Source of the DNA: a virus
IMG/VR virus record: IMGVR_UViG_3300038443_001768
Strand: one strand, 5' to 3'
Length of the DNA stretch: 64,000 nucleotides
This document shows, in pieces, positions 20,529-37,017 of this stretch (position 1 is the first letter of the stretch; every line of letters starts with the position of its first letter). Made by a program: the position numbers and the translations under genes. Under the pieces are notes generated by a model. It was not told where the DNA came from and did not search any database. It saw only the letters and a program-made list of their open reading frames with translations.

Positions 20529-20552
20529 TCCTACAGCCCTGAGGAGCTATCC

Positions 20553-20747
20553 ATGTACTACAAGATCACCGAGGAGTTGCCCGACGGACGCGTCCGCGGA
20601 CTAGGCCGCACCGGCGACCGCGAAGAGGCGCTGCGCATCTATCACGCCGATCCGCGATGGGCGCGCACCCTTCATCAGTCGAGCACCCCGTTCCCGCCCG
20701 CTAAGGCGCAGCGAGGGGAGCTATCCAAGGCCTACAAGAAAGGCTAG
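20553..20747 (+). CDS. Hypothetical early protein
   Basis: GAGGAG-CTATCC-ATG. Confidence 0.75.
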   Translation: MYYKITEELPDGRVRGLGRTGDREEALRIYHADPRWARTLHQSSTPFPPAKAQRGELSKAYKKG

Positions 20748-20906
20748 TCCTGTATGTCTCAGTCTCACGGCGGTTCACGTTCGCGCGGCGATGACTTCGC
20801 TGAGATGGTCTCAGTGATTCTCATGATTGCCGGGATCGCGCTGTGCGTGATCGCGCCACTCGTCGAAGTCATCAAGTCCATCATCTAGCTCAGGGAGCTA
20901 TCCAAG

Positions 20907-21143
20907 ATGTACAACAACCTCTTCAACCCCAACGTCCCCTACCGCGCGGACGGCCATTGGTCGCTCCCGCTCAACCGGCGAGTCGCCTACGCCGACGAGC
21001 GCGCCGGTAGGATCGCCGAGAATGTGGCCAACCGGGAGCGGCTCGGACCCGTCGTCGCCGTCGATGGCGAGACCTATCAGTTCGACGCCTATGCGGAGCT
21101 ACTGTCGGCCGCGTACCCCGGCCGGAACACCATCAACAACTGA
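20907..21143 (+). CDS. Hypothetical early protein
   Basis: GGGAG-CTATCC RBS. Confidence 0.75.
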   Translation: MYNNLFNPNVPYRADGHWSLPLNRRVAYADERAGRIAENVANRERLGPVVAVDGETYQFDAYAELLSAAYPGRNTINN

Positions 21144-21153
21144 GAGGATCGAC

Positions 21154-21384
21154 ATGTCCATCAACTACGCTCGCATGCAGCGTTCGCTGCCTCGCCTGAA
21201 GGCGGCGCTCACTCGCGCCGTCAAGAGCGGCGATCCTGCCCGCGTCGAGGCCGCGTGTCGCGCCGCTGTCGCCGAATGGGACGCCTGCGGGGCATGGCCG
21301 GACGATTGGTCGCGCTGGCAGCGCGCTCTCGACGATTCGCGTCCGCCGTGGGAGTGGATTCGTCTCGAAGACCTCAGCGCGTAG
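21154..21384 (+). CDS. Conserved early phage protein
   Basis: KAALTRA...AWPDDWSRWQRALDD. Confidence 0.8.
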   Translation: MSINYARMQRSLPRLKAALTRAVKSGDPARVEAACRAAVAEWDACGAWPDDWSRWQRALDDSRPPWEWIRLEDLSA

Positions 21385-21434
21385 CCGCGCGGGGCATCGG
21401 ACCTCTCGGTGCCCCCTGCGAGTGCGAGCTATCC
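21376..21434 (+). repeat. 59-bp hairpin-GAGCTATCC element
   Basis: AGCGCGTAGCC[hairpin]AGTGCGAGCTATCC. Confidence 0.85.
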
Positions 21435-21487
21435 AGGCCGCGCAATCCAGGCCGCGCATCAACTAGTCCTACAAGAAAGGCAACATC

Positions 21488-21886
21488 ATGGCCAAGCGTT
21501 CCCCTGACCGCGAGCGGTTCCTCGCCGACGTCATCGTGACGGCCGTCGAGGGCGGCATCGGCTACTGGTCGCAGGTCTCGGATTACCGTTGGTGGTCCGA
21601 TCTGATCGGCGGGCACAACGCTACGGCGGTGTTTGAGACATCGGTGATCGTCTACCCGCTGCTGGACGATGAGTCCGGCTACAGCGTCAACGGCGTCCCC
21701 GTCGGCATCGACTCGATCGCGCGCGCCATCGAGCGGATCAAGTCCGACCGATCCATTCGGCTCAGCGATGCCTACTTGGCGCGCATCCTGATCGCCGACC
21801 GTGACAACGACGCCGGGAACCTCGATTCCGACGACGCCGACGTGATCGTTCAGGTAGCGGTGCTCGGTGACGTCATCTACGGGTGA
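21488..21886 (+). CDS. Conserved phage protein
   Basis: VTAVEGGIGYW...DADVIVQVAVLGDVIYG. Confidence 0.85.
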   Translation: MAKRSPDRERFLADVIVTAVEGGIGYWSQVSDYRWWSDLIGGHNATAVFETSVIVYPLLDDESGYSVNGVPVGIDSIARAIERIKSDRSIRLSDAYLARILIADRDNDAGNLDSDDADVIVQVAVLGDVIYG

Positions 21887-21902
21887 GGCGGGGGAGCTAT
21901 CC

Positions 21903-22112
21903 ATGTCTTACGACGCAATCCTGATCGAGTTCCGCGACCGCCGCACCGATCGCACCGTGTGGGCGGTCGTCGCTGATCGGATCGTTTGGTGCACCCCTAC
22001 CGAGGTCACCTACATCAAGTGCGACAGTGGCGTGCGTCACGGGTCGCGCATCCTGCCGTCCGAGTACGTGGCGCTGCGCCCCTGCGTGGCCGATCGGCCG
22101 ATCGGGCGGTAA
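21903..22112 (+). CDS. Hypothetical early protein
   Basis: GGAG-CTATCC-ATG. Confidence 0.7.
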   Translation: MSYDAILIEFRDRRTDRTVWAVVADRIVWCTPTEVTYIKCDSGVRHGSRILPSEYVALRPCVADRPIGR

Positions 22113-22134
22113 ACGACAACTAAGGGAGCTATCC

Positions 22135-22248
22135 ATGTCTGTCGTGTTCTTCATCATCAAGTGCCCGCGCTGTTCGTCTGAGGCGTGCGTCCGCGTTGGA
22201 CGCACCGGTGTCTGCGGGCGCGGCCATCACGTCCGAGTCAACCGCTAG
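22135..22248 (+). CDS. 37-aa Zn-ribbon peptide
   Basis: GGAG-CTATCC-ATG; CPRC...CGRGH. Confidence 0.65.
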   Translation: MSVVFFIIKCPRCSSEACVRVGRTGVCGRGHHVRVNR

Positions 22249-22305
22249 CGCGTAGCCATCAGGGGCCAAGTCATAGGATTTGGCCTCGATGAGTGCGAGC
22301 TATCC
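22247..22305 (+). repeat. 59-bp hairpin-GAGCTATCC element
   Basis: 58/59 identical to 26920-26978. Confidence 0.92.
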
Positions 22306-22342
22306 CACGCACTGCATGTCCATCAACAACTGGAGGTACTTG

Positions 22343-22519
22343 ATGTCCAAGTCGCAGTCGTTCACGTCCCTGTCGGCGGCGATGGGGTACCTGAAGGCCC
22401 AGGCTCGCGCGGAGGCGAACGCCGCCCACGCGGAGGACCTGAAGCGCGCCGCCAACCTCCGCCGGTCCGCGTCGATTGCCCGCAAGGCGCCCGGCACGGG
22501 ACCGCGCATCGCCGCCTGA
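22343..22519 (+). CDS. Small Ala/Arg-rich protein
   Basis: GGAGG RBS. Confidence 0.7.
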   Translation: MSKSQSFTSLSAAMGYLKAQARAEANAAHAEDLKRAANLRRSASIARKAPGTGPRIAA

Positions 22520-22566
22520 GCCGTCGCTCCAGCCAGTAGTCGGTTCGACACAGGTACCCCGGCGAC

Positions 22567-22630
22567 TAGCCGTCGCGGGCATCGGGTGAGACAATTCCGG
22601 TGCCCTCGATGGGTAGCCACGGAGCTATCC
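22567..22630 (+). repeat. Hairpin-GAGCTATCC element (variant)
   Basis: TAGCC-GTCG-C-GGGCATCGG...CCGGTGCCC-T-CGAT...GAGCTATCC. Confidence 0.75.
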
Positions 22631-22669
22631 CAGCGACGCAGATTGTTCTACAACAACAGGAGCAACGCC

Positions 22670-23071
22670 ATGACCACCAAGATGACGCCCGACGAGGCGC
22701 GCAAGGTCACCCGTCCGCAGCCCCGGGCCGGTGATCGCTGTGTCTTCTACTCCGAGATGTTGCACGAGACCGTCGACTCCCATGGGCGGTGGTTTCTGGT
22801 GCGTGACTACACGGGCCAGGAAGTCACCGTCGTCCGTCACCTGCGAGGGGTCAACGACCCCGCCCCTGAGTACGACGGGCCGGGCGAGGACGACGTCGAA
22901 GACCACGACGCCGATGAGGGCGGCAAGGGGTGGTTCGAGTGCTCGCGCGGCTACATCGTCCGCGCTCTCGACGGACGCGAGTTCATGGTTCACGTCGAGG
23001 AAATCGACGGCTGGGACCGCGACCTTGGACAGTTCTACGGACCCTCCGGTGTTTGGGGCAGCGTTGAGTAA
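22670..23071 (+). CDS. Hypothetical protein (SH3-like beta fold possible)
   Basis: AGGAG RBS. Confidence 0.75.
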   Translation: MTTKMTPDEARKVTRPQPRAGDRCVFYSEMLHETVDSHGRWFLVRDYTGQEVTVVRHLRGVNDPAPEYDGPGEDDVEDHDADEGGKGWFECSRGYIVRALDGREFMVHVEEIDGWDRDLGQFYGPSGVWGSVE

Positions 23072-23119
23072 CGAGCTATCCCAGCGCAGCACAGATTGTT
23101 CTACAACAACAGGAGCAAC

Positions 23120-23479
23120 ATGAAGACCTACGGTGAACCTGGCGGCGTGTACCTGACGTATGCGCTGAACCTCGATCGCGGCGCCTACGTGGTCGAGAAC
23201 GAGGCCGGAGACGAGCTTTACGCGTCTGGCTCTGAGGCCGACGCGCAGCGCTTCTGCGAAGACCTGATCCAGCGCGAGGCCGCCGCTCTCATGTACCAGT
23301 CGCAGGCGGCACGCGACGCTCAACGCGGCGGCTACGGAGGCCCTGCGTACTGGCAGTATCTGGACGACCATGCCTGCAAGATGCGCGACTACTGGCGCGC
23401 CCGTGGAGACGAGGAGCAGGCCGCCCTCATGTTGACCCGTTCGCTGGGTCAGGCGCTCGCTGGCAACGACGGCGAATAA
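23120..23479 (+). CDS. Hypothetical protein
   Basis: Leader duplicated from the 22670 gene. Confidence 0.75.
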   Translation: MKTYGEPGGVYLTYALNLDRGAYVVENEAGDELYASGSEADAQRFCEDLIQREAAALMYQSQAARDAQRGGYGGPAYWQYLDDHACKMRDYWRARGDEEQAALMLTRSLGQALAGNDGE

Positions 23480-23504
23480 CAACCTCATCAGTTAGGAGCT
23501 ATCC

Positions 23505-23798
23505 ATGTCCTACAACTCAGACGGCGAGCGCACCGTCCTCACTGACGACGCCTACAAAGAGGCGTTCGGTTGCGGGCGCGCCGCAGCCCGCGAGTACCTC
23601 AACAACCTCGAAGGCGCGACGCGCAGCGAGGCCCACTGCGACGACGTGCGCGAGTCGGTCCACCCGCGGGCGTTCTCGGAGGCGTTGGACGCCCTTGAGG
23701 ACTTCGCCGCCCTGCCCATCTCAGAGGCCGTCGATGACGGAATCAACGAGGCGTGGAACGAATTCATCCACGACGTCGCAGTCAACGACTACATCTAG
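23505..23798 (+). CDS. Acidic hypothetical protein
   Basis: AGGAG-CTATCC-ATG. Confidence 0.75.
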   Translation: MSYNSDGERTVLTDDAYKEAFGCGRAAAREYLNNLEGATRSEAHCDDVRESVHPRAFSEALDALEDFAALPISEAVDDGINEAWNEFIHDVAVNDYI

Positions 23799-23807
23799 AA
23801 CAACAAC

Positions 23808-24101
23808 ATGCCTAAGATCGCAGAGACCTACAACGGCTGGACCAACCGGCCGACCTGGAACGTCAACGTCTGGCTTTCCAACGATGAGAGCCTCTACTGG
23901 ACGGCCCTGGACGTGGTGCGTGGCTACAAGGAGCACACCACCAATTGGTCCGCGAAGGGTGCGGGCCAAGCGCTGCGCGAACTGGTCTTCGCGAACCGCG
24001 ACGACCGAGGCGGGTTCGGTGACCTGAGGCGCACCGAGCTATCCAAGGTCAACTGGACCGAGCTTGGCGCGGCCTGGCTCGAAGACATCATCCACGGCTA
24101 G
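23808..24101 (+). CDS. DUF7249-like phage protein
   Basis: YNGWTNRPTWNVNVWLSNDE...VNWTE. Confidence 0.8.
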   Translation: MPKIAETYNGWTNRPTWNVNVWLSNDESLYWTALDVVRGYKEHTTNWSAKGAGQALRELVFANRDDRGGFGDLRRTELSKVNWTELGAAWLEDIIHG

Positions 24102-24240
24102 GACCATGAGCATCATCGACCTCATCGCACTGACCCAGGCCTCTCTACTGGAGAGCGTCTTCGACTTCTACTACGACAACCCAGCGCGCCAGCCAGGAGG
24201 CTGGCACCGCGCTATCCGCGCTCACATCAAGGCGTAGCAC

Positions 24241-24492
24241 ATGAACATGGACCCCAACATCGTCCTGCTGACCTACCAGGGAGTCGTCCGCTATCACGGA
24301 CGGGTGGTTGTCACGGTCGGCGACGAGACGCTCTCGCAGGCCGTCGTACGCGCCCTGGACGCTGACCCCGACTTGCCGACGCCGCAACCGTGGGACCGCC
24401 TGCTCTTCCCGGACGCCGCGCCCGGCTCACAGTGGGCGACGCTGACGACGGAGCGGTTCCCGGCGCGCTCCATCAACCCCTTCAACGGCTAG
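24241..24492 (+). CDS. Hypothetical protein
   Basis: ORF in operon. Confidence 0.65.
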   Translation: MNMDPNIVLLTYQGVVRYHGRVVVTVGDETLSQAVVRALDADPDLPTPQPWDRLLFPDAAPGSQWATLTTERFPARSINPFNG

Positions 24493-24501
24493 GACGACAA
24501 C

Positions 24502-24708
24502 ATGACACGCAAGGACTACGAGTCGATCGCGCTGGTGCTGCTGTCGGAGCGTTCGCGCTCGATGGGCGACGAGTTCGACAACGACGTTGCAGCCAAGGTG
24601 CTCGACAACGTCGCGTACGCGCTGGCCGTCGAATTCAAGGCCGACAACCCCCGGTTCGATCGGGACCGGTTCCTCATCGCGAGCGGCGCAACCCGAACCA
24701 GCCGCTAA
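24502..24708 (+). CDS. Conserved small phage protein
   Basis: MTRKDY..IA...FKADNPRFDRDRF. Confidence 0.85.
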   Translation: MTRKDYESIALVLLSERSRSMGDEFDNDVAAKVLDNVAYALAVEFKADNPRFDRDRFLIASGATRTSR

Positions 24709-24741
24709 GCGAGCTATCCAAGTTCTACATCTAGGAGCAAC

Positions 24742-24984
24742 ATGAAGGCCTTTGTCGTCTACATCGACACCGACGAACTCTCCGCCGCCGATCTGCGGGT
24801 GGCGGTCATCCTGGGGGCTGATTGCGGCGCAGACACCGAGCCCGCCGTGACCGTCGAGAGGATCGTCTACGACGGTTACCGCCTCGATGTCCGCACCGGC
24901 GAGCGCTCCGGACCCAAAGCCCTCACCCTGCGCTACAAGGCGCAGCCGCTCAGCCATGGTTACGCCGACAGCGACCCCTTCTAG
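24742..24984 (+). CDS. Hypothetical protein
   Basis: AGGAG RBS. Confidence 0.7.
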   Translation: MKAFVVYIDTDELSAADLRVAVILGADCGADTEPAVTVERIVYDGYRLDVRTGERSGPKALTLRYKAQPLSHGYADSDPF

Positions 24985-24990
24985 GAGTAC

Positions 24991-25527
24991 ATGATGAACA
25001 ACGACATCCGCACCGCCAACGTCGAGGTCTCCGAGGCCCCTGGCGGTCGTGGCGGCTACCACATCGTCCGCTCGCACGGCATCGCCGGTACGTGGTGGGC
25101 GTGCTCGCGCAGTGGCGACGACGCCATCTCGATGGCTGTCTACGCGTCGCTGTTCGGTGAGTGCCCGCGCCGCCCGTGGGAGCCGCCGATGGCGCCCAAC
25201 GAGGTCGACGGCATGAGGTCGCCTCTGGCGGTGTCCTACGACAGCGAGGCCGATGCGCGAGAGGCCTTTGAGCGCATGGAGCGCGCGTGGTCGGCGGCCC
25301 TGCGGGGGACGCTGGTCGAGCTTCAGCCCTACGCGGAGGACGACGACTCAGTGACCCTCACCGACGAGGACTTCGAAGTCCTCAACCAAGGTGGCTATAT
25401 CAGCCTCCCCGACGGGCGCGTCGTCATCGACGGGCTCGACTGCTGCGCGCACGTCCTGACGCCGGGCACCTATTGGGGCGCGGACGGCAACTGCTACGAA
25501 GTACCAACCAAGATCACCAACAGCTAG
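24991..25527 (+). CDS. Hypothetical protein
   Basis: TAGGAG stop/RBS coupling. Confidence 0.75.
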   Translation: MMNNDIRTANVEVSEAPGGRGGYHIVRSHGIAGTWWACSRSGDDAISMAVYASLFGECPRRPWEPPMAPNEVDGMRSPLAVSYDSEADAREAFERMERAWSAALRGTLVELQPYAEDDDSVTLTDEDFEVLNQGGYISLPDGRVVIDGLDCCAHVLTPGTYWGADGNCYEVPTKITNS

Positions 25528-25538
25528 GAGCACACCCA

Positions 25539-26018
25539 ATGTCTGCGTTCGTCGTCAGCAAGGCCCATATCGATGCTATGATCACGGCCGCGATCGACCT
25601 GAACATCAACTACTGGAACGGCGAGAGGTGGTGCGTAGTCAGCGCCGCTACCGCCAACGAGGTCGGACAGGCGCTGGTCGACGAGTGCGTGCGTTCGGTC
25701 AGCTACCGCTACCCCAACGATGACGTCAAGGCCGGTGAATTGCCCGGTCCCGGCGACGCCTACTACGTCGAGCCGTACCAGTACATGCGCACGCGTAGGT
25801 TCTCCGACGCAGAGGTCCGGGACCTCGTTCGCTGCTACGAGTATCAGGCATGCGAACACCCTGGATGGCGGACCTCACCGGCCGAGTACTTCTGTCGCGC
25901 CGTCGAGGGCAAGCTGCTATCGCGCATCCCGGGCGAGGGCGCGCGTTGGGGCGTCGAAGCCGACGACGTCGGCTACGGCACACGCAACGACTTCAACATC
26001 ACCGATCTACTCAGCTAG
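25539..26018 (+). CDS. Conserved early phage protein
   Basis: MSAFVVSKAHID...SVSYRY...CYEYQACEHPGW..S.A. Confidence 0.85.
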   Translation: MSAFVVSKAHIDAMITAAIDLNINYWNGERWCVVSAATANEVGQALVDECVRSVSYRYPNDDVKAGELPGPGDAYYVEPYQYMRTRRFSDAEVRDLVRCYEYQACEHPGWRTSPAEYFCRAVEGKLLSRIPGEGARWGVEADDVGYGTRNDFNITDLLS

Positions 26019-26028
26019 GGGCAACGCC

Positions 26029-26310
26029 ATGAACTCGATCAAGTTCCAGGCCATCTCTGAGGCGGCGGCGCGCGACCTCGACGGCAACGTTGTCGCGGCC
26101 TTCGACCTCGCCGACGAGGACGGCTGCTATCCCGCGGCGCTCATCGCGTGGCAGGGACGAGCCCATCCGACTCGTCACGGCACCCACATGGCGGTCGTGC
26201 CGCCTGATCGCGCAGTCTATTTCGTCGATGGCGCGTACGACTTCGCCGAATCCCTCGACGCTGTCAGTGACGCCTTCCATCGCTGGCTGCGCAAGAACCC
26301 CATCAACTAG
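26029..26310 (+). CDS. Hypothetical protein
   Basis: Coupled ORF. Confidence 0.7.
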   Translation: MNSIKFQAISEAAARDLDGNVVAAFDLADEDGCYPAALIAWQGRAHPTRHGTHMAVVPPDRAVYFVDGAYDFAESLDAVSDAFHRWLRKNPIN

Positions 26311-26324
26311 GAGCTATCCACGTC

Positions 26325-26531
26325 GTGAAGAGCATTATCTTCTTCCGGGTCGATGTGCCCGGCATCGGTGACAGCGTTCGCGTCCAGGACGACGTCGCCG
26401 GCATTGACAGCAAGCTGCGGGCCGCACACCTGAACCACGACCTGACCATCGAGGTCACGACGTCGTCGGGGCGTGCGCTCGTTATCCCGATCGATCTGAT
26501 CGGGCCGTTCCGCGACTACCAGGACCGATGA
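26325..26531 (+). CDS. Hypothetical protein
   Basis: AGGAG-CTATCC RBS, GTG start. Confidence 0.7.
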   Translation: MKSIIFFRVDVPGIGDSVRVQDDVAGIDSKLRAAHLNHDLTIEVTTSSGRALVIPIDLIGPFRDYQDR

Positions 26532-26965
26532 TGGAGTCCGCGATCACGCAGGACACGATCATGGCGGTAGCGCTGCGACATGATCCTTACGCCGAGTGGG
26601 CGTCCGACGAGCCGGACGAGAACTGCCTTCTCATCGCGCATCATGCGGTCGTGTTCCTGCTCGACCGTTACCCCGACGCCTACGAGGACCCCAACGTCCT
26701 CGCTATCGGCGATCACACACGCGTCGTCTTTCCGACCCTCAACAACTGGACCCTGTGGCGAACATCAACGAGCAGCGCGAGGTCGCGCAGCACATCATGT
26801 CGCTCATCGTCAAGGGCACGCCGCATGCCGACGCGCAGATCGCGGAGGCCGGTATGTGTCTCGCCGAACTGGTCATCGCGCTCGATCATTGGCGGCGTAC
26901 CGGCGGATTCGACCCCTACAGCGCGTAGCCATCAGAGGCCAAGTCATAGGATTTGGCCTCGATGA
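26528..26965 (+). CDS. Hypothetical protein (C-terminus overlaps next gene)
   Basis: ATGA overlap; only the first ~75 aa look coding. Confidence 0.5.
   Translation: MMESAITQDTIMAVALRHDPYAEWASDEPDENCLLIAHHAVVFLLDRYPDAYEDPNVLAIGDHTRVVFPTLNNWTLWRTSTSSARSRSTSCRSSSRARRMPTRRSRRPVCVSPNWSSRSIIGGVPADSTPTARSHQRPSHRIWPR
26746..26928 (+). CDS. Small phage protein of (M)DP..N..EQR...ALD.W...GGF type
   Basis: Recognisable family pattern; start is CTG 26746 or GTG 26755. Confidence 0.65.
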   Translation: MDPVANINEQREVAQHIMSLIVKGTPHADAQIAEAGMCLAELVIALDHWRRTGGFDPYSA

Positions 26966-26978
26966 GTGCGAGCTATCC
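26920..26978 (+). repeat. 59-bp hairpin-GAGCTATCC element
   Basis: 58/59 identical to 22247-22305. Confidence 0.92.
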
Positions 26979-27003
26979 AAGCCCTACAACTAAAGGAACA
27001 CCT

Positions 27004-27216
27004 ATGCCTGTCGTTCACTTCACATCCTCAGACTCCTTCATGGAGTTAGACAATCGCGCCGCGCTGACCGCTGACGTCGAGGTCGTCGACTACGTCGAGG
27101 CCACCTACTGCGCCCTCCGCACGGGTCCCGACGGCGTCACCATCGCCGTCTACGAGGGCGGCGCATGGGAACTGCCGGACGGCCGCCGGTTCTCCGATTG
27201 GGCCGTCCGGGTCTAG
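27004..27216 (+). CDS. Hypothetical protein
   Basis: AAAGGA RBS. Confidence 0.75.
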   Translation: MPVVHFTSSDSFMELDNRAALTADVEVVDYVEATYCALRTGPDGVTIAVYEGGAWELPDGRRFSDWAVRV

Positions 27217-27225
27217 GACATCAAC

Positions 27226-27618
27226 ATGATCGTCAACGGCACCACCTACCACGACCGCACCGACGAACGTGTCATCGCGGCCCTTGAGTGGGCGCGCGCG
27301 CGCCGCGTCCGTATCCGGGTCCACTACGGAACCACCGTGACCTCGATGCCCGCCTCGCTGGGCTCGCCTGTCGGGTCTGATTGGGGCGACACGTATCACG
27401 TCGAGGGCTACGTCGGGCGCTCCACCGGCAACGAGAAGATTCCATTGTTGGTCAACAACGCTCGATCCACAGGCGGCCCCGCGATCCTCGACGACTGCAT
27501 CGTCAGGGTCCGTATGGCGAACCGCTCCGAGGGTGGCGATATCTACCGCCACCCCTCATACTGTCCCCCGCCGCGTGGCGACTTCGACGAGAAGACCTAC
27601 AACCGACATTTCGCCTAA
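27226..27618 (+). CDS. Conserved early phage protein
   Basis: GTTYH...RIRVHYG...GYVGRSTG..KIPLL..NARSTGGPAILDDCIV. Confidence 0.85.
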   Translation: MIVNGTTYHDRTDERVIAALEWARARRVRIRVHYGTTVTSMPASLGSPVGSDWGDTYHVEGYVGRSTGNEKIPLLVNNARSTGGPAILDDCIVRVRMANRSEGGDIYRHPSYCPPPRGDFDEKTYNRHFA

Positions 27619-27620
27619 GC

Positions 27621-27881
27621 ATGCCTACTACTCAGGAAATTCAAGCTGCTCGCGACGGCCTGCGGCGGCTCGCGCGGGTCATCAACCACGCGGCCGACGA
27701 ACTGCACCTTGCGTCGCTGTGCTCGTTGACCATCGACCGAAACCCCAACGACGACAACCTGCGAGATGATCAGCGCCGCTCAATCGACCATCACGTCGCG
27801 GCGGCGCGCGGCGTCATCGAGACCCAGCCGCCCCTGTACGCGTACGCGCTGTTCACGCTTCTATCCAAGCACGGACTCTAA
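27621..27881 (+). CDS. Hypothetical protein
   Basis: ORF in operon. Confidence 0.65.
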   Translation: MPTTQEIQAARDGLRRLARVINHAADELHLASLCSLTIDRNPNDDNLRDDQRRSIDHHVAAARGVIETQPPLYAYALFTLLSKHGL

Positions 27882-27890
27882 GGACCCTAC

Positions 27891-28550
27891 ATGACCAAGA
27901 TCATCAACAAGCTCTTCGGCCGCTTCAAGGAGCAGCCGCTTTGGAGCGACGAGTCCTCGAACCAGCGCTGGTCAATTGGGCCGATCAAGTTGGAGTACAA
28001 GCCGAGCGTTGGTCTGACGTGGTGGCTCGGCAAGGGGTCGTCGCTAACCCTGGGCCGACGCCCTGGGTTCAAAGCTCTGGTCCCGGTGTGGGTGCCGGTC
28101 TTGCTCCCGGTGCGGCTGCGCATCTTCCACCGCGACGGCGTCACAGTGACGCTGCGCTTGCGTCGCCCGTACCTGACGCGCTGGGTGCTCTGCGTCGGCA
28201 CCTGGGCCTACGACGGCGGCGGGCGGCTCGCCAGGGGGCCTGAGTTCTACCGGCGCGTGGTGCTGACGTGGTGGCGGGTCACTCACCGCCCGCAGAGCGA
28301 CTACTACATCAAGCCCTGGTACGGCTACGGTGCGGACGGGCTGGAGTTGTTGTTCAGAGACCGCGAGGCACGCAAGGCCTCCAACGCTCCATTCAAGACC
28401 GACCCAGGTGTCGACTATCCCCGCGTAGAGCGCATCTGCCAGTTCCCGTGGGGATCGACGCCGCCGCGCGGATTCCCGCTCCGCATGGGTGTCCTGGACG
28501 GGTTCCGAGACTGGCGTCAGACCAAGTACTACAAGAAGGTGGCGGCATGA
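27891..28550 (+). CDS. Basic Trp-rich hypothetical protein
   Basis: AAGGA RBS. Confidence 0.7.
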   Translation: MTKIINKLFGRFKEQPLWSDESSNQRWSIGPIKLEYKPSVGLTWWLGKGSSLTLGRRPGFKALVPVWVPVLLPVRLRIFHRDGVTVTLRLRRPYLTRWVLCVGTWAYDGGGRLARGPEFYRRVVLTWWRVTHRPQSDYYIKPWYGYGADGLELLFRDREARKASNAPFKTDPGVDYPRVERICQFPWGSTPPRGFPLRMGVLDGFRDWRQTKYYKKVAA

Positions 28551-28804
28551 CCATCAACCCCATCATCTACGACGCCGACGACTGGCGAGTCATCCGAATC
28601 AATCCGATCGACTTCCGGGTCGAGCGGCACTACAAGGGAACCGACCACGTGGACTCAGCGCTGGTGTCGCTGCGCGAGACCGTGCATCCTGGCCTGCGCG
28701 AGTTCATCGTCGTGCGCGGTCCGTTCTACAGCTATCAACTGCCCGCCGAGCTTGCGCGAGCCATGTGGCATGCAGTCACGCACGGCCTCGGCATCAGACT
28801 CTAA
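28547..28804 (+). CDS. Hypothetical protein
   Basis: ATGA overlap. Confidence 0.7.
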   Translation: MTINPIIYDADDWRVIRINPIDFRVERHYKGTDHVDSALVSLRETVHPGLREFIVVRGPFYSYQLPAELARAMWHAVTHGLGIRL

Positions 28805-28815
28805 GGAGAAACAAC

Positions 28816-29349
28816 ATGTACCGCATGCAGCGCCGCTACGTCAGCAACCCCAACTACGAGCACGCGCTGGCCGTCTTCGCGGACGGTCTGCTCCGCAACA
28901 ACGACTACGACCGTCAGCTATGCGGGGCGGTCCTCCACGGCGGCTCCGATCGGTTCGGCTCGGACGTCTTCGACATCGTCGACCCCAACGTGGTACCGGA
29001 CCATTTCGTGCTCGGTCCGATCTTCGTCGGGCTGGGCTCCGACACGGACTGCGACGGCACCACCTACCACGCCGTCAAGATCGACGCCGACAACCTGCGC
29101 GACGCGCTGATCCAGGCGGACGAGTACCCGCACGTCTACAAGGTCATCACGCTTCGCGAGGCCGACGATGACGACATCTGGGAGGACGGCCGGAAGCCGG
29201 GCTGGGACGAGCGCGCCTACTTCCTCCAGGAGGGCTACGCCTCGTTGGGCGCGGATTGGAACCCGTGGGTCTACGACGACTCGCTCGGCACGGTGCTCGA
29301 TCACACCAACGACGTTCCGGTCATCAACGATGACGACCTCTACTACTGA
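28816..29349 (+). CDS. Acidic hypothetical protein
   Basis: AAGGAG RBS. Confidence 0.75.
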   Translation: MYRMQRRYVSNPNYEHALAVFADGLLRNNDYDRQLCGAVLHGGSDRFGSDVFDIVDPNVVPDHFVLGPIFVGLGSDTDCDGTTYHAVKIDADNLRDALIQADEYPHVYKVITLREADDDDIWEDGRKPGWDERAYFLQEGYASLGADWNPWVYDDSLGTVLDHTNDVPVINDDDLYY

Positions 29350-29362
29350 GAGGAGCTATCCG

Positions 29363-29572
29363 ATGTTGAACAACGAGTACATCATGTTCTTGGTCAAAAC
29401 TCGCCTGACCCAGGACTGCGACGACGTCGTGCTCGTCAAGGCGCGCGACCGTGAGGACGCCAAGCGGCAGGCGTTGCCGTTTCTCGGCCACTACGCCAAC
29501 GAATACGTGGTCGAGCCGTTGACGCGAAGGACGGACAACGTCATCGTCAGTCTCAGCTTCGCCCTCTCCTAG
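29363..29572 (+). CDS. Hypothetical protein
   Basis: GAGGAG-CTATCC RBS. Confidence 0.7.
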   Translation: MLNNEYIMFLVKTRLTQDCDDVVLVKARDREDAKRQALPFLGHYANEYVVEPLTRRTDNVIVSLSFALS

Positions 29573-29634
29573 AAAGGACATCATGTACAACGCATTCGTC
29601 ATCTATCGAGACCGCATGGAAAGAGAGGCTCAGC

Positions 29635-29895
29635 ATGGCCGATGAGTACGAAGACGATAAGAGAATCCTCCTCGTCGAGGACACCAAGACACAACTCATC
29701 GATGCGCTGGCCGACCTGATGCTGATCCATGGCGGCGACGGCTCGAAGGTCCAAGACGAGATTGAGCGCGCCTGGTCGTCAGCGCACCGCCACTACGAGG
29801 CCGAGAAGGACGGCGACTCCGAGGGCTTCACGCTCATGGTGTGCGCGCAGGACGGCAGCCGCTCGGTTCCGCTGCGCGAGTGGGTGACGCGATGA
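29635..29895 (+). CDS. Hypothetical protein
   Basis: LIDALADLM...AHRHYEAE. Confidence 0.7.
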   Translation: MADEYEDDKRILLVEDTKTQLIDALADLMLIHGGDGSKVQDEIERAWSSAHRHYEAEKDGDSEGFTLMVCAQDGSRSVPLREWVTR

Positions 29896-30263
29896 CCGGC
29901 CGACAGATCGGCACCGTCGAAATCCTGCGTCTCAGGATCTACAACATCGACCCCGACGACGAGTACTCGGACGAGGTCGCGGTCGAGCCGGGCGAGTGCC
30001 CCGTCCTCGTCGAGGACGGCGTCTACTTCTGGCGCATGAGGGGCCGCCTCAGTCGCCGCGTCGGTGCTGACGTCGCGGCGCTCGGCGATGGAATGTTCAT
30101 GGTCTCGCCAGGCGTTGACGTTCAGGTCGGCGACGAGATTGAGTTCTCGTCGCGTCGGTTCTCCGCCGATGAGTTCCAGGCGCTGCTCAGCGACGACGTT
30201 TGTCGCGAGGGTGACACCTCTCAGCGCCTGCGTTTCAACATCAAGGAGGGGTATCTGCGATGA
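29892..30263 (+). CDS. Hypothetical protein
   Basis: ATGA overlap. Confidence 0.7.
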   Translation: MTGRQIGTVEILRLRIYNIDPDDEYSDEVAVEPGECPVLVEDGVYFWRMRGRLSRRVGADVAALGDGMFMVSPGVDVQVGDEIEFSSRRFSADEFQALLSDDVCREGDTSQRLRFNIKEGYLR

Positions 30264-30454
30264 GACGCGTCAGGATCGAAGTCACCGAGTACTACATCAT
30301 CGATATCGGCGAGGAAAACGACGGCACGGACGCCGTCCTGGAACTCGACGAGATGGACTCAGACGATCGTGCCGCCGCCTACCAAGAGCGGTACGTCAGG
30401 GTCTTCGATGACAACACTGGCGGCGAGTTGCCGGTCGATCGGACGGTCGTGTGA
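30260..30454 (+). CDS. Acidic hypothetical protein
   Basis: ATGA overlap. Confidence 0.7.
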   Translation: MRRVRIEVTEYYIIDIGEENDGTDAVLELDEMDSDDRAAAYQERYVRVFDDNTGGELPVDRTVV

Positions 30455-30723
30455 TGCTGCTGACGTTCTCCGTGTACTCCGCGGAGCCCTACCCAATCAA
30501 CGAGTCGTGGTATACGCTCGAAGAGGCTATCGAGGCCGAGTCCCACACCGTCGCCGCTGAGGCAAACGCGGATCACATCCCGGACCCGTCCGAGGACACG
30601 CGCGAGGCTTTCCGGCTGGAGGTCGTGCATGCCGCTACGGCGGCGTTGCAGCGGCCGGGCGACACCTACCGTGACCCGCTCGGGGTCGTGTGGTCGCTGG
30701 TCGAAGACCGCTCCCGAACCTAA
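30451..30723 (+). CDS. Hypothetical protein
   Basis: Coupled ORF. Confidence 0.7.
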   Translation: MMLLTFSVYSAEPYPINESWYTLEEAIEAESHTVAAEANADHIPDPSEDTREAFRLEVVHAATAALQRPGDTYRDPLGVVWSLVEDRSRT

Positions 30724-30738
30724 CGAAAGGACACCAAG

Positions 30739-30933
30739 ATGAGCACCAAGTACGACGCCTACGTGGAGGCCATCAATCGCGCCGACGAGGCGATGCAGGA
30801 GGCGTTGCGCGTCTTGCCTCAAGACGCCAGCGAGCTATCCGTGCTGGTCACGAACGGAACGTTCCGTGACGTCCGTGCGACGCTCACGATGGCCTACGGG
30901 CTCCAGAGGGAGGCCCAGGATGGGACTCGCTGA
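30739..30933 (+). CDS. Hypothetical protein
   Basis: AAAGGA RBS. Confidence 0.7.
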   Translation: MSTKYDAYVEAINRADEAMQEALRVLPQDASELSVLVTNGTFRDVRATLTMAYGLQREAQDGTR

Positions 30934-31108
30934 CATCGCCGCCCGCCTGGCGGCGTACGAGAACGAGGAACTCTCCTACGACGAGGAGGTCGAGTTGTTC
31001 CAGGAGTTGCTGGACACCGACGTGATCTACCATCTCCAGGGCTCGTACGGGCGCCGGATGCAGGAACTGATCGAGGAAGGGAAAGTGCGTGTCGCAGGAG
31101 GTAGCTGA
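30920..31108 (+). CDS. DUF7417-like small phage protein
   Basis: AYENEEL...ELFQELLDT...LQGSYGR...LIEEG. Confidence 0.8.
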   Translation: MGLADIAARLAAYENEELSYDEEVELFQELLDTDVIYHLQGSYGRRMQELIEEGKVRVAGGS

Positions 31109-31418
31109 GGTCGTCGTGTGGATCGAGACGCCGATCGACACCATCAAGTACACCATCAGAGGGATCGCCCGGAATGATGGAGCGCCCCTGGGTGGCGTCT
31201 ATGTCGAGCGCGAGACCGACGGCGGCGTCGATCAGGCGCAGGCCGAGGTCGTCCAGCACGGGCCTAGGCTTCTCCTGGACTTCATCCAAGGCTGGCTCAG
31301 CGAGAGCATCATCGATGATGACGACGAGCACGACCGGCGGTGGAATCAGCGCCCGGTGGGCCTATGGTCGCTGATCTGGCGGGCCTGGATGGACGCTGCG
31401 GGGGCGCCCACGGCGTGA
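31089..31418 (+). CDS. Hypothetical protein
   Basis: ORF in operon. Confidence 0.65.
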   Translation: MSQEVAEVVVWIETPIDTIKYTIRGIARNDGAPLGGVYVERETDGGVDQAQAEVVQHGPRLLLDFIQGWLSESIIDDDDEHDRRWNQRPVGLWSLIWRAWMDAAGAPTA

Positions 31419-31507
31419 GAGTTGTCCGGTATCTAGTCGAGCACATCGCGATCTGCGCAGGTTTCGTGAACGGAACCAGGCACTTCAACGAACGAAAGGA
31501 CTGAGCA

Positions 31508-31873
31508 ATGATGAGACTTGAGGAAACCATCACGGTGGAGCGAACTGGCCGCTCCATCGCCTACCGAGGCAGCTACCGAGGCGGCGTCCTCACCATCATC
31601 GACCATCGCGGGTACGTGATGACTCCCGAGGAGTTGGGCTACGCGGTCGGCGACGAGGCATATGAGAGGTCCCTGAGCCTGCGTCGTAAGCGCGCGCTCG
31701 AACTCTGCAAGCTCATCTTCGGTGGCTTCGTTGCCGACGAGGAACGCGGTGACGACCAGGCCTCGTACTACGCGACCCGACTTCACCGCTTCCACCTGCG
31801 CGGTGTCGACCGCACCGAGCAGGGCGTACGCTGGGTGTGGGAGTACGAGACCTTCTCCCCCTACACGGACTGA
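31508..31873 (+). CDS. Hypothetical protein
   Basis: AAAGGA RBS. Confidence 0.7.
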   Translation: MMRLEETITVERTGRSIAYRGSYRGGVLTIIDHRGYVMTPEELGYAVGDEAYERSLSLRRKRALELCKLIFGGFVADEERGDDQASYYATRLHRFHLRGVDRTEQGVRWVWEYETFSPYTD

Positions 31874-32049
31874 TGATCGTTCTCGGCATTTTCTGCGTCG
31901 TCGTGGCGAGCGGGGCGCTGATCCTCGCAGGCGACGCATTCGTGCGTTCGGTCGATGATCTCAATCCCGTGCCGCGTGTCCTTGCTGCGCTGGCCCTGTC
32001 TGGGCTATGCGCGATCTTCATCTACCTGGCCGCGCTGTGCTTGGCTTGA
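31873..32049 (+). CDS. Small two-TM membrane protein
   Basis: Two hydrophobic segments; TGATG overlap. Confidence 0.7.
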   Translation: MIVLGIFCVVVASGALILAGDAFVRSVDDLNPVPRVLAALALSGLCAIFIYLAALCLA

Positions 32050-32074
32050 CACAACCAACGGAAAGGAATAAGGT
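32046..32074 (+). promoter_or_regulatory. Sigma70-type promoter
   Basis: TTGACA-N17-TAAGGT-N7-ATG. Confidence 0.7.
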
Positions 32075-32081
32075 ACTCACC

Positions 32082-32414
32082 ATGACGACCTGGAACCCTG
32101 TCATCGATCTGCCCAGCGGCCACCGCGTCTTCGCTGGAGGCGGGCGGTTCGCCGTCGCCGACGAGTCCGGCTCGTGGCCACATCTCACCGATGACGGCGT
32201 GCTGTGGCTGGACTTCGACCGCCCGCTCACGCTGGGCGAGGAGGCCAGCGAATTCGTGCCGCGCGACCGCGTCATGCCAATGATCCCGCTGAAGCGCGAG
32301 GACGGAACCGAAACCCGCACCGTCGCTGACGCGGCTTCGATCGTGGCGTTGTCGCTGCGCTTCGATTGGGGCATCAACGTGCGGGGGACGCTGTTGAGGG
32401 CGGTGCGCGCATGA
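32082..32414 (+). CDS. Hypothetical protein
   Basis: FAVADESG...TDDGVLWLD. Confidence 0.7.
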   Translation: MTTWNPVIDLPSGHRVFAGGGRFAVADESGSWPHLTDDGVLWLDFDRPLTLGEEASEFVPRDRVMPMIPLKREDGTETRTVADAASIVALSLRFDWGINVRGTLLRAVRA

Positions 32415-32590
32415 GCAGCAACGACGCCATCAACCGGGTCGCCCTGGCGCTGCGCGCGGCGTGTTGCGCGCATCCCGACCAGCGGGTGATGCAGGTACTG
32501 GTCAACGCATGCTGTGGTGTTGACCCGTTCTATCTCGAAGACAGCGAAGCCGAGCAGGCGCTGCGCGCATACGCTGAGAAGGCCGAGTAG
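32411..32590 (+). CDS. Small phage protein
   Basis: PDQRVMQVLVN...DPFYLED pattern. Confidence 0.7.
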   Translation: MSSNDAINRVALALRAACCAHPDQRVMQVLVNACCGVDPFYLEDSEAEQALRAYAEKAE

Positions 32591-32601
32591 GAGCTATCCA
32601 T

Positions 32602-33006
32602 ATGCTGATGAGTTTCGGACTCCGCCTCACCGGCTACTACGGCGACTCGCCCGCCGAGGAAGGCGGCTACGACGGCTACCGCGTCATCAAGTCCATCAAC
32701 TTCTCACTACCGATGGTCGAACCCGGTGATGTCGACGCAGCCATCGACGCCGTCAACGTCGAGGAGAAGGCGCTCTCGCAGATCGACTCGTTCATCTCGT
32801 GGTGGGTGACTGCTGAGCGTTTCGAGTGCTACACGCTGATCGAAACGGAGCGCCAGCGGTCGTTCTTTCGCTACGAACTTCTGCGCGCTCTGACCCACGC
32901 ACTGGACGGAACCGATGACAGCTGCGTCTTGTACCGCTACGAGATGACAGACGAGTCGTGTTTCGTGTCGACACTGCGCCTCTACAACACCACAGACGAT
33001 GCCTGA
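32602..33006 (+). CDS. Hypothetical protein
   Basis: AGGAG-CTATCC RBS. Confidence 0.7.
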   Translation: MLMSFGLRLTGYYGDSPAEEGGYDGYRVIKSINFSLPMVEPGDVDAAIDAVNVEEKALSQIDSFISWWVTAERFECYTLIETERQRSFFRYELLRALTHALDGTDDSCVLYRYEMTDESCFVSTLRLYNTTDDA

Positions 33007-33436
33007 TCGACGCACCCGACTCAACGACCTCGTCAATGTCTACCATCGCCGCCATTACGGCGACTACGACGACATGTACGAGGACTTCGAGCAGACCTAT
33101 CTCGCCGAAGACCACGACGAGAGTCTCCCGATCCCCCGGTACGCGTCTATCGCGGGTGACGAGACTTACGGGAAGATCACACTGTTCGATGACATCAACG
33201 AGGCGCTCGCCGATCAGGCCGCAACCAGCGACAACGGTGAGTACCTCAACGTCCCGGAAGGAATCATCGACCTCGACACCGGCGACGAGGTCGAGACCGT
33301 GACGCGCACATTCCTGAAGGCTGACTACGACCGCCTGCGTGCGGCGTTCGACGAGTCGTCGCCCGACGACGTCGGCAGGGCCACCAAGATCGTCGCCATC
33401 GCCGACGACATGTTCAACAGAAAGGACAACACATGA
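32999..33436 (+). CDS. Acidic hypothetical protein
   Basis: Coupled ORF. Confidence 0.7.
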   Translation: MPDRRTRLNDLVNVYHRRHYGDYDDMYEDFEQTYLAEDHDESLPIPRYASIAGDETYGKITLFDDINEALADQAATSDNGEYLNVPEGIIDLDTGDEVETVTRTFLKADYDRLRAAFDESSPDDVGRATKIVAIADDMFNRKDNT

Positions 33437-33969
33437 TCACCGCCATCGAAGCCACGGAGGAGCACATCGAGCAGGCCCTCGACGCGCTCAACAAGATGTC
33501 CCTCATCGTCCGCAATGACATGCTCATGCGGGGCGAATACCTGACGCCCGATATCGTCGATTACGAACTCGCCAAGAAGGGCGCGATCTGCGGAGGGCAC
33601 AAGGCCTGCGCCGTGGGGTCGCTCTATCTCGCCGCCGGGGTTCGCCGCGAGCGTCGCGAATTGGCCTGGTCGCTGCCCGGAGCCTACCCGCACGAGCGCC
33701 CGTACTTCATGGCCAGTCGCCCCGCGTTGCGTGTCGCCTATGAGGCGCTCAACGCAGCCGCTGAGCGATACTGCGGGCGGCATGGTATCGACCTCGACAA
33801 CTACACCCGCTACGACGCCATGACCAACGAGGCCGGGATGTTGGAACGCCTCTTCGAGGCCACCTACGTCGGCACCGACGACGTCGTCATCGACGCGGCG
33901 GTCGAGCTTCCCAAGATCATCAACAGCGCTAAGCGCGCGCTGCGTCGTCAGGCTGCGCTCGCGGCCTGA
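33433..33969 (+). CDS. Hypothetical protein
   Basis: CAVGSL motif; AAAGGA RBS. Confidence 0.75.
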   Translation: MITAIEATEEHIEQALDALNKMSLIVRNDMLMRGEYLTPDIVDYELAKKGAICGGHKACAVGSLYLAAGVRRERRELAWSLPGAYPHERPYFMASRPALRVAYEALNAAAERYCGRHGIDLDNYTRYDAMTNEAGMLERLFEATYVGTDDVVIDAAVELPKIINSAKRALRRQAALAA

Positions 33970-33999
33970 TCTACACCAACAACGAGAGGATCATCCCGC

Positions 34000-34685: not shown

Positions 34686-34911
34686 TCCGCACGACTACAC
34701 GATTGAGGTGTGCCGTGTTTGCGGAGCGCAACTCAGCCTCTACGGGAACGGGCGGTGTCCAGTCGATCGCGCGCACTGGCGAGTCGGCGGCATGGCACGT
34801 CGTCGCGCGGCCTGAAGCTCAGCAGGATCGGCACTATGGCGCGGCCGTGATCTCGCCCGAGGCGAAGACATTCGCGGCTCCCACGTTGGCCGACAACCAG
34901 GAGGAGGAGCA

Positions 34912-36873: not shown

Positions 36874-37017
36874 GAGCGCTATTTGCGTGCCTCTGTGAGG
36901 CCTAAGCTGGCGCGCCAGCGCTCCTCTATGAGTAGGTTTGGTGGCCGCCTAGGCCGCCGTAAAGCCCTTATTTGCAGCCATTTCCTGCCCGAATGGGTAG
37001 GTTCGGTGGCGAAGCGT

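Follow-up and report, generated by a model that had tools for sequence, protein, structure and literature searches.

A conserved sense-strand hairpin joined to a start-associated motif in the early genes of an uncultured actinobacterial phage

Four genes in the early rightward operon of an uncultured actinobacterial phage (~140 kb) are each preceded by a conserved hairpin element, whose helix leads directly into an invariant nine-nucleotide motif and whose base pairing is preserved where its sequence is not. The element is an RNA structure of the sense strand, and belongs to the gene that follows it. We tentatively regard it as a site between cistrons that serves processing or stability, of the RNase III type. 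The whole stretch of DNA analysed, hereafter called the window, comprises 64 kb with 63% GC and includes the following features.

20544..46577, + strand: span of the 21 exact copies of GAGCTATCC, with consensus RS-GAGCTATCC-A-W-G; four copies are hairpin-borne
21376..21434, + strand: type I hairpin copy 1, with lower stem AGC.CGUA/UGCG.GCU, middle helix CGCG/UGCG and upper stem GGGGCAUCGG/UCGGUGCCCC, then GAGCTATCC
21435..21487, + strand: leader from copy 1 to its gene, with a 14-nt tandem duplication (ATCCAGGCCGCGCA twice), CTACAAG and the Shine-Dalgarno sequence AAAGG
21488..21886, + strand: gene behind copy 1, 132 aa, 28 homologues found
22247..22305, + strand: type I hairpin copy 2, with middle helix CAUC/GAUG, upper stem GGGGCCAAGUC/GAUUUGGCCUC and loop AUAG
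22343..22519, + strand: gene behind copy 2, 58 aa, with its own Shine-Dalgarno sequence GGAGG
22561..22630, + strand: type II variant, with a small hairpin GGCGAC-UAGCC-GUCGC, a main hairpin GGGCAUCGGG...UCCGGUGCCC, and GGGUAGC pairing with GCUAUCC of the 9-mer
22670..23071, + strand: gene behind the type II variant, 133 aa, preceded by a conserved leader TTCTACAACAACAGGAGCAAC
26920..26978, + strand: type I hairpin copy 3, identical to copy 2 at 58 of 59 positions, a stem G-U pair becoming A-U; flanks unrelated
27004..27216, + strand: gene behind copy 3, 70 aa

The initial annotation of this DNA had reported 59-bp copies at 21376, 22247 and 26920, and both a repeat search and the sequence confirm these coordinates exactly, along with the two stem families described there. 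Its fourth copy, a variant at 22567-22630, does exist but is better drawn as 22561-22630 and differs in architecture. The opening 6.5 kb of the operon contains all four elements, three of them within 1.3 kb, and copy 1 has its flanks alone in common with copies 2 and 3. The gene junctions are arranged in the order of upstream stop codon, helix of ~21 pairs, GAGCUAUCC, a leader of 25-55 nt carrying its own Shine-Dalgarno sequence, and AUG. Each copy had been described as beginning at or shortly after a stop codon; in copies 1-3 the upstream TAG falls inside or at the first 9 nt (21382-84, 22246-48 and 26926-28). The stop codon before the type II variant is a TGA at 22517-19, located 41 nt before the element (22561) and 47 nt before the start originally given for it.

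The three 59-nt copies adopt a common three-part helix of about 21 pairs, with folding energies ranging from -32.6 kcal/mol for copy 2 (z -4.9, with none of 200 shuffles folding equally well) to -34.6 kcal/mol for copy 1; copy 3 has a z of -6.3. When the relative's copies are included (n = 5 type I copies from both phages), the helix comprises 19-22 pairs in three coaxial segments. The lower stem, AGC.CGUA/UGCG.GCU, is made of the conserved flanks and buries the first five bases of the 9-mer, and the upper stem and loop are variable between copies. A general scan for stable hairpins was of no use at this GC content, with hundreds of hits on both strands, and local pairing probabilities did not single out the 9-mer copies, or set the start-adjacent ones apart from the others, as high-GC RNA folds everywhere.

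Across the window copies and two orthologs from the relative, 93.6% of cells pair, versus 30-50% when the partners are slid. Double-sided changes affect seven pairs, including the whole middle helix (CGCG/UGCG versus CAUC/GAUG), and the covariation score was reached by none of 500 shuffles, with the understanding that the test draws on five distinct type I sequences, that some differences among these are wholesale swaps rather than stepwise compensation, and that the lower stem, being invariant among copies, is untouched by it. The original observation that pairing and length are kept while sequence varies is thus real, and the orthologs from the second phage strengthen it. Among 138 pairs in eight elements, 22 are G-U on the + strand, and every pair that is not Watson-Crick is of this kind; in L039, a sample variant of the relative, the outermost G-C of the type II main-hairpin core GGGCAUCGG/CCGGUGCCC likewise becomes G-U. 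The minus strand folds 8-13 kcal/mol worse in every element. Because of this strand bias in both pairing and stability, we conclude that the element is a structure of the sense-strand RNA. Its loops (ACCUC, AUAG, GCCAA, UUCG and one of 9-10 nt) are not conserved, which fits recognition of the helix geometry rather than of the loop.

The only true relative in IMG/VR is a phage of 139.5 kb (L023) with about 25 tRNA genes. It carries hairpins at orthologous junctions, with other upper stems and with compensated middle pairs: the ortholog of copy 1 is found at L023:11422-11478, and that of copy 2, whose upper stem differs, at L023:12994-13049. In both phages the same downstream gene resides directly behind the hairpin, whereas the genes before it come and go. 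A 76-aa gene precedes copy 1 in the window and is absent at the relative's junction, and genes of 67 aa and 51 aa precede the copy 2 ortholog in the relative only. Given that the hairpin keeps its downstream gene through these changes, the comparison indicates that it is a 5′ leader module of that gene. No ortholog of copy 3 was found in the relative, nor did blastn show a counterpart of its 70-aa gene there, giving no match to the relative across window positions 26292-27619.

The element is carried by two phage lineages only. Beyond the one true relative, scanning for exact patterns in IMG/VR, JGI metagenomes and GTDB genomes returned chance matches. A covariance model (R1), a check that the initial annotation had proposed, detected no additional copies when applied to the window and to all 139.5 kb of the relative. 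Neither motif nor hairpin is present in L040-L048, which are more distant homologues of the 132-aa gene. No nucleotide match to known phages was found, and protein matches to them are all distant, with less than 40% identity. The window has no Rfam match at gathering level, and an Rfam search of 21200-27200 produced chance-level hits only (E about 1 or more), with nothing tRNA-like among those to the elements. A literature search for the 9-mer turned up unrelated primers only. The phage is unusual in other ways too: its genome of about 140 kb encodes tens of tRNAs together with a miniature RNase P RNA, and hardly any of its early genes has a known function.

The 9-mer itself is more widespread than the helix. 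Exact copies of GAGCTATCC number 21 on the + strand of the window and none on the - strand, where 0.34 are expected, and one-mismatch variants are at background level (three on + and four on -). Together with 20 copies in the relative, the motif is invariant in 41 of 41. It lies 0-3 nt from an ATG or GTG in 21 of these, and a G precedes it at -1 in 17 of the 21 start-adjacent copies versus 5 of the 20 others. About a quarter are intragenic or 20-65 nt from any start. A hairpin is found directly 5′ of the motif in 4 of the 21 window copies and 3 of the 20 copies in the relative; the remaining 17 window copies have no helix at all. Several simple roles for the motif were considered and set aside. 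As an extended Shine-Dalgarno sequence, GGAGCUAUCC would form a duplex with the 16S 3′ tail of -8.4 kcal/mol, which ranks 1836 among the 4096 combinations of GGAG with any 6-mer and is not special. As an antisense to the tRNA D-arm, its complement GGAUAGCUC occurs in none of the 25 phage tRNAs checked, with the generic UAGCUC alone matching. A complementary RNA encoded elsewhere would contain GGATAGC, which is found nowhere in the window and once in the relative. Counts of the motif core outside the early region are near Markov expectation, giving no sign of avoidance.

Repeats associated with start codons have been known in actinobacterial phages since 2011 (PMC3203893). We classify the present element as a variant of the start-associated sequence (SAS) and extended start-associated sequence (ESAS) kind, which resembles but does not match the sequences of the Cluster K phages (Pope et al. 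2011, PMC3203893; Freeman et al. 2024, PMC11373665); phages of Microbacterium Cluster EF have a similar pair (PMC7302621). Like the Cluster K SAS (PMC3203893, PMC11373665), the motif is short and asymmetric, contains GGAG and so includes Shine-Dalgarno bases, and occurs in a single orientation, only in the early or non-structural arm and mostly at start codons; the copies number 11-21 across the two systems. In both systems a subset of motif copies has an inverted repeat (~50 bp) directly upstream, before a subset of early genes, and the pattern is kept at orthologous genes. The motif sequences, however, are unrelated (GGGATAGGAGCCC versus GAGCTATCC), and the present motif differs from that of Cluster K in its complete invariance and in its copies placed inside ORFs or away from starts. 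The arms also behave differently. Those of the Cluster K ESAS conserve a consensus sequence, with departures that break pairing, and do not argue for a paired RNA. Their current interpretation is a SigA promoter combined with an operator, with SigA-like -35 and -10 hexamers 17-18 bp apart in the 2024 reading. In contrast, the arms described here vary, covary and use G-U pairs, and have no promoter hexamers. The element shares the layout of the Cluster K inverted repeats but is plainly a structure of RNA, one in which the motif itself is paired, making it a second, contrasting example that could show whether start-associated motifs act on RNA.

The function that we favour, with due reserve, is that of a processing or stability site. 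The four elements are cis-acting stem-loops on the sense side of the polycistronic early transcript, which runs rightward, and each leads one particular gene. A double-strand-specific nuclease, or a 3′ exonuclease halted by the helix, would separate the upstream from the downstream message, such that the former retains its stop codon and a protective hairpin and the latter starts near a freed 9-mer. With about 20 pairs of double-stranded RNA, the helix has the geometry of an RNase III substrate, for which irregularities are tolerated. An RNA processing or stability element had already been suggested for these repeats; a conserved RNA structure in the early transcript agrees with this, and it is the cleavage and the responsible enzyme that we infer. 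A parallel is provided by the RNase III sites of phage T7 (R0.3, R0.5, R1, R1.1 and R1.3). These too are irregular helices, spanning about two turns and interrupted by internal loops; they are found between early cistrons of a polycistronic mRNA that the host polymerase makes, each ahead of one particular gene, and likewise have no U-tract. There is no sequence similarity between the two, and the T7 sites have no fixed linear motif behind them. The processing model leaves the role of the 9-mer, and its place after the helix, unexplained. A linear motif combined with a hairpin in an early transcript is also seen in lambda nut (boxA plus boxB) and in the rrn antitermination leaders; however, the conserved boxB loop is recognised whereas the loops here are unconserved, and those motifs occur once or twice per operon rather than 21 times. 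A Cluster K precedent exists in Adephagia, where a 17-pair stem between genes 90 and 91 coincides with an end of RNA-seq coverage that its authors attribute to termination or processing (PMC11373665).

A rather doubtful reading that does give the 9-mer a role is that GAGCUAUCC is recognised by a dedicated factor controlling when early genes are expressed, with the four hairpins as masked versions that exempt or delay four genes until opened by processing or upstream translation. Such a factor might come from the phage, as a translational repressor or an endoribonuclease with sequence specificity comparable to T4 RegA or RegB, or might be a host factor that has been reprogrammed; PHROGs and Pfam name almost none of the early proteins, and no candidate partner was found among them. 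If true, this would constitute a post-transcriptional early-to-middle switch of a kind so far undescribed in actinobacterial phages.

It is unlikely that the helices serve as attenuators, stopping or pausing RNA polymerase or loading a termination factor to grade the expression of early-operon units, possibly relieved by a phage antitermination factor. The hairpins are stable, GC-rich, directly behind stop codons and grouped within the operon's initial 6.5 kb, and hairpins without a U-tail occur at transcript ends in some actinobacteria. However, no copy has a T-tract or U-tract directly behind it, no terminator-like site was found on the + strand at 18-30 kb, a range covering all four copies, and mycobacterial RNA polymerase requires a U-tract for intrinsic termination in vitro. 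The same phage has a canonical hairpin plus T-tract at 17279-17319. Furthermore, three sites in 1.3 kb would starve roughly 25 kb of downstream early genes. The Adephagia stem fits this reading as well as processing (PMC11373665).

Similarly improbable is a switch of translation or factor access, in which the helix masks GAGCUAUCC as a factor or ribosome site until a ribosome terminating at the upstream stop melts it, thus making the downstream gene depend on translation of the upstream one. In each of the five type I copies the stop codon is in the first 9 nt, inside the lower stem, the 9-mer is paired in both architectures with a segment upstream of it, (G)UAGC or AGC..CGUA, and the 9-mer includes Shine-Dalgarno bases and shows the G preference near starts described above. 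Yet the real Shine-Dalgarno sequences and AUG codons of the four genes are 25-55 nt downstream and unmasked, the hairpin copies mostly read CGAG rather than GGAG, and the stop before the type II variant lies outside any stem.

The further proposal of a recombination cassette boundary has circumstantial support, but we judge it quite unlikely as an explanation. Here, the conserved flanks of 11 nt and 15 nt would be short homologies for early-gene exchange, and the helix would be incidental or left over from a small mobile element. Near-identical copies 2 and 3 lie within unrelated surroundings, all three type I window copies are at indel, replacement or mosaic breakpoints relative to the other phage, and upper stems are swapped at orthologous sites. 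Nevertheless, pairing survives both the swaps and point changes (G-U to A-U and G-C to G-U), which needs selection on structure. Only three or four copies are present among about 50 gene junctions, and there are no terminal repeats or target duplications. Integron attC sites ('59-base elements') are similar in being imperfect inverted repeats of like size at the 3′ ends of short genes, with conserved flanks, a variable centre, and structure kept over sequence. However, attC folds as bottom-strand single-stranded DNA and needs an integrase, whereas here the G-U bias points to RNA, only three or four junctions carry the element, and no linked integrase is present.

A DNA-level site, namely a promoter whose operator is an inverted repeat to which a regulator binds, as now proposed for the Cluster K ESAS, would account for the shared layout in the early arm but is very unlikely. 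The arms differ completely between copies while complementarity is kept, whereas a protein operator would conserve sequence rather than pairing, and the mismatches are all G-U on one strand. No sigma-70-type sites were found on either strand at 14000-30000, and no TANNNT is common to the copies.

9171-9473, - strand: miniaturised RNase P-like RNA, 27 bits (sub-threshold), with CR-I, CR-IV, CR-V and the GGU at the L15 position kept

Finally, the suggestion that the RNase P RNA of the phage itself cleaves a helix ending in a 3′ NCCA tail is highly improbable. The proposed TAGC:GCTA pairing, which places TCCA behind the helix in copies 1 and 3, is feasible but 4.5-8 kcal/mol worse than the favoured AGC.CGUA/UGCG.GCU, and gives a 4-pair stem beside a 7-nt bulge instead of the continuous helix of ~12 pairs abutting single-stranded NCCA that a minimal substrate presents; the favoured fold leaves a tail of AUCC-N, TCC is followed by C in half of the six hairpin copies and by A in the other three, a 5′-side cut would remove the upstream gene's stop codon, the elements matched no Rfam family, tRNA-like or otherwise, and phage tRNA arrays are the expected substrates. 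The RNase P-like RNA on which this suggestion was based does exist, scoring under the Rfam cut-off of 100 bits, and is 98% identical in the relative.

Four hairpin elements in the window terminate in the 9-mer GAGCTATCC (RNA form GAGCUAUCC), and we conclude that each represents a real RNA structure under selection, linked to this invariant early-region motif of the phage. The elements and the genes they lead are as follows.

21376-21434 (+): copy 1, type I hairpin of 59 nt; leads the gene at 21488-21886
22247-22305 (+): copy 2, type I hairpin of 59 nt; leads the gene at 22343-22519
22561-22630 (+): type II variant; leads the gene at 22670-23071
26920-26978 (+): copy 3, type I hairpin of 59 nt; leads the gene at 27004-27216

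Sequence and repeat searches recovered the three 59-nt copies exactly where the initial annotation had placed them, with copy 3 identical to copy 2 at 58 of 59 positions. The variant, previously drawn as 22567-22630, also exists, but it is delimited here as 22561-22630 and its architecture is unlike that of type I. A single minimum-energy structure (-32.6 to -34.6 kcal/mol) is common to all type I copies. Its lower stem of seven pairs (AGC.CGUA with UGCG.GCU) takes in the GAGCU of the 9-mer and is surmounted by a 2x2 internal loop, a four-pair middle helix, a one-base bulge and an upper stem of 10-11 pairs capped by a 4-5 nt loop; copies 2 and 3 fold better than 200 of 200 shuffles. The type II variant comprises a small hairpin (loop UAGCC), a main hairpin and then GGGUAGC paired with GCUAUCC of the 9-mer, and thus the 9-mer is sequestered there too, by different means than in type I. 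No Rfam family was matched by the elements.

A scan of IMG/VR with the exact pattern yielded one true relative, IMGVR_UViG_3300037420_001343 (139.5 kb, rated 99% complete and assembled in other samples too). It shares synteny and 67-95% nucleotide identity with the window, and three of its junctions, orthologous to those of copy 1, copy 2 and the type II variant, carry hairpins. The copy 2 ortholog keeps both flanks, but its middle helix is CGCG/UGCG rather than CAUC/GAUG, and its upper stem is GGCCGGGG-UUCG-CUCCGGCC rather than GGGGCCAAGUC-AUAG-GAUUUGGCCUC. In the copy 1 ortholog a G has been lost from one arm and a C from the other, and a G-C pair stands in place of a G-U; in a sample variant of the relative one G-C pair of the type II stem has become G-U. 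When the five type I sequences that differ from one another are compared, 93.6% of cells pair, versus 30-50% once the partners are displaced by 1-3 columns; double-sided changes affect seven pairs, and the covariation score was reached by no shuffle. The earlier proposal that pairing is conserved while sequence varies is therefore borne out, and extended by a second phage. Given that G-U pairs make up 22 of the 138 pairs on the + strand across all eight elements, and that the reverse complement folds 8-13 kcal/mol more weakly in every one of them, the hairpins are a sense-strand RNA structure and not a DNA palindrome.

A covariance model of these five type I sequences detected no further copy in the window or in the relative's whole genome, and scans of JGI metagenomes and GTDB genomes gave chance matches only. 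Both motif and hairpin are absent from more remote homologues of the adjacent 132-aa gene. The family is thus tiny and lineage-specific, which limits the statistics.

Gene linkage was judged by pairwise alignment of the junctions in the two phages. The window has an extra 76-aa gene 5' of copy 1 that the relative lacks, and two genes of 67 and 51 aa, missing from the window, precede the copy 2 ortholog in the relative. At both junctions the alignment breaks exactly at the element's 5' edge, and the hairpin still adjoins the same downstream gene. We conclude from these alignments that each element is a 5' leader module of its own particular early gene, four genes in all. Copy 3 is surrounded by a stretch without counterpart in the relative and, taken with the junction alignments, this indicates that the conserved flanks have evidently acted as exchange points. 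TAG stands in two reading frames of the element (TAGCGCGTAG), and any gene that comes to abut it therefore stops within the element's first 9 nt. Two overlapping frames 5' of copy 3 (window 26528-26965 and 26596-26928), each of which looks protein-like over only half its length, could represent a frameshift or two short genes; position 26797 is a possible start for the gene that terminates in copy 3. At copy 1, a perfect tandem duplication of 14 nt (two units of ATCCAGGCCGCGCA, window 21431-21458), absent from the relative, begins within the 9-mer.

Among all 9-mers of the window, GAGCTATCC is the most over-represented, with 21 exact copies, all on the + strand from 20544 to 46577, where 0.34 are expected; the relative has 20, every one in forward orientation and located between 33.6 and 60 kb. 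The motif behaves as all-or-none, as one-mismatch variants are no commoner than on the opposite strand, and the extended conserved word is RS-GAGCTATCC-A-W-G. When a start codon follows by 0-3 nt, the preceding base is G (creating GGAG) in 17 of 21 cases; the remaining 20 copies have G there in 5 cases and C in 14. The motif therefore doubles as a ribosome-binding site at compact junctions (TAG-GAGCTATCC-ATG). Its non-Shine-Dalgarno form is kept at other places, including inside ORFs, with the rare CTA codon. All type I hairpins are of the CGAG kind, and each gene has its own Shine-Dalgarno sequence 25-55 nt downstream. The TATCC half is not explained by extra pairing with the 16S 3' tail, and no complementary RNA for the motif, tRNA or other, was found. 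Downstream of many copies that do not abut a start there is a second conserved leader, (G)TYCTACAAC-N-AGGAGCAAC-ATG, and TACAAC also occurs near the start of several ORFs abutting the 9-mer (ATG TAC AAC; ATG TCC TAC AAC).

22639-22669: second leader
23092-23119: second leader
24720-24741: second leader
26979-27003: second leader

A distant relative's locus (L040, JGI Ga0642624_14604) contains a run of eight genes of ~60 aa each as well as ~20 copies of CGTCTGAG-type words, which are a separate repeat system in a related early region.

With respect to function, we tentatively favour a processing or stability site. RNase III sites sit between T7 early genes, and these are what the elements most resemble in geometry and position. 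In Adephagia, an intergenic region forms a 17-pair stem where RNA-seq reads end, which its authors attribute to termination or processing (PMC11373665). An attenuator is an unlikely alternative to a processing or stability site; a classical terminator was rejected, as no T-tract follows any copy, whereas the phage has a proper hairpin and T-tract at 17279-17319. We are equally doubtful of a masking or coupling switch, even with the 9-mer drawn into pairing in both types. Exchange at the flanks notwithstanding, a recombination boundary is also unlikely as the main role, and the lack of loop conservation makes a loop-specific protein site unlikely.

The closest described system is the start-associated sequence (SAS) and its extended form (ESAS) of Cluster K mycobacteriophages, in which a GGAG-containing motif lies in a single orientation at early-arm gene starts and about half of its copies are preceded by a ~50 bp inverted repeat (PMC3203893); a similar pair occurs in Microbacterium Cluster EF phages (PMC7302621). 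Departures in the ESAS arms do not preserve RNA pairing, according to the original authors (PMC3203893), and in a 2024 study the ESAS is interpreted as a SigA promoter plus operator (PMC11373665). In our elements, by contrast, the arms covary and promoter hexamers were not found, so both defining points of the ESAS fail: the hairpin and 9-mer form a start-associated system by layout that falls outside the SAS/ESAS family by mechanism. A DNA operator or promoter is improbable, and a sigma-70-type promoter was rejected, as a scan of 14-30 kb for such sites found none.

The initial annotation also suggested, as a speculation, that a phage ribozyme, RNase P, could cleave the hairpins. A miniaturised RNase P-like RNA is indeed present (window 9171-9473, - strand): it matches RF00010 end to end, though its 27 bits fall short of the cut-off of 100, and it has CR-I, CR-IV, CR-V and the L15-position GGU intact, with the specificity domain reduced to ~45 nt. 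Its counterpart in the relative (L033:2521-2824, - strand; 27-28 bits across both phages) is 98% identical, amid coding DNA of 77-85% identity. We nevertheless consider the hairpins very improbable substrates. Forcing the suggested TAGC:GCTA register, which leaves TCCA, is possible at a cost of 4.5-8 kcal/mol and introduces a 7-nt bulge, so minimal-substrate geometry is lacking; the base following TCC is not conserved, and a 5'-side cut would take the stop codon off the upstream gene. Pre-tRNAs are the expected substrates, given that the relative has ~25 tRNA genes in three arrays (L031:53-11901 and L036:16917-17406) on the minus strand, as is its ribozyme; ARAGORN found no tRNA genes in the window.

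The window, of 63% GC, comes from an uncultured tailed phage without a nucleotide match among deposited phages, and its protein matches are distant and only to phages of Rhodococcus, Mycobacterium, Gordonia and Streptomyces. Also in support of this assignment, a baseplate-like protein is encoded at the left end, and RNA ligase, thymidylate kinase and SNF2 helicase in the right part. Genes run leftward up to ~19 kb, and from ~19.2 kb small genes follow in a long rightward block. The gene-free region of 1.3 kb 5' of the early operon (L038:1204-2487 in the relative; about 16-19 kb in the window) is dense in the short repeats CGCGTCTCACG, CAAAGAGCGAAC, CATTGACT and GACAATGACA and is probably an early control region or origin. 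Also placed in the large gene-free region, the hairpin at 17279-17319 (+) has 12 pairs and a tRNA T-loop-like loop (GGTTCGATTCC) followed by TTTT (compare L023:7876-7954 in the relative). ARAGORN calls the relative's counterpart a tRNA-Ala-like gene, and this hairpin possibly marks the 3' terminus of an RNA resembling a tRNA or tmRNA. Finally, the RNA ligase (phrog_548; 47499-48104) and a nearby metallophosphoesterase (49799-50530) would fit a module for RNA or tRNA repair.
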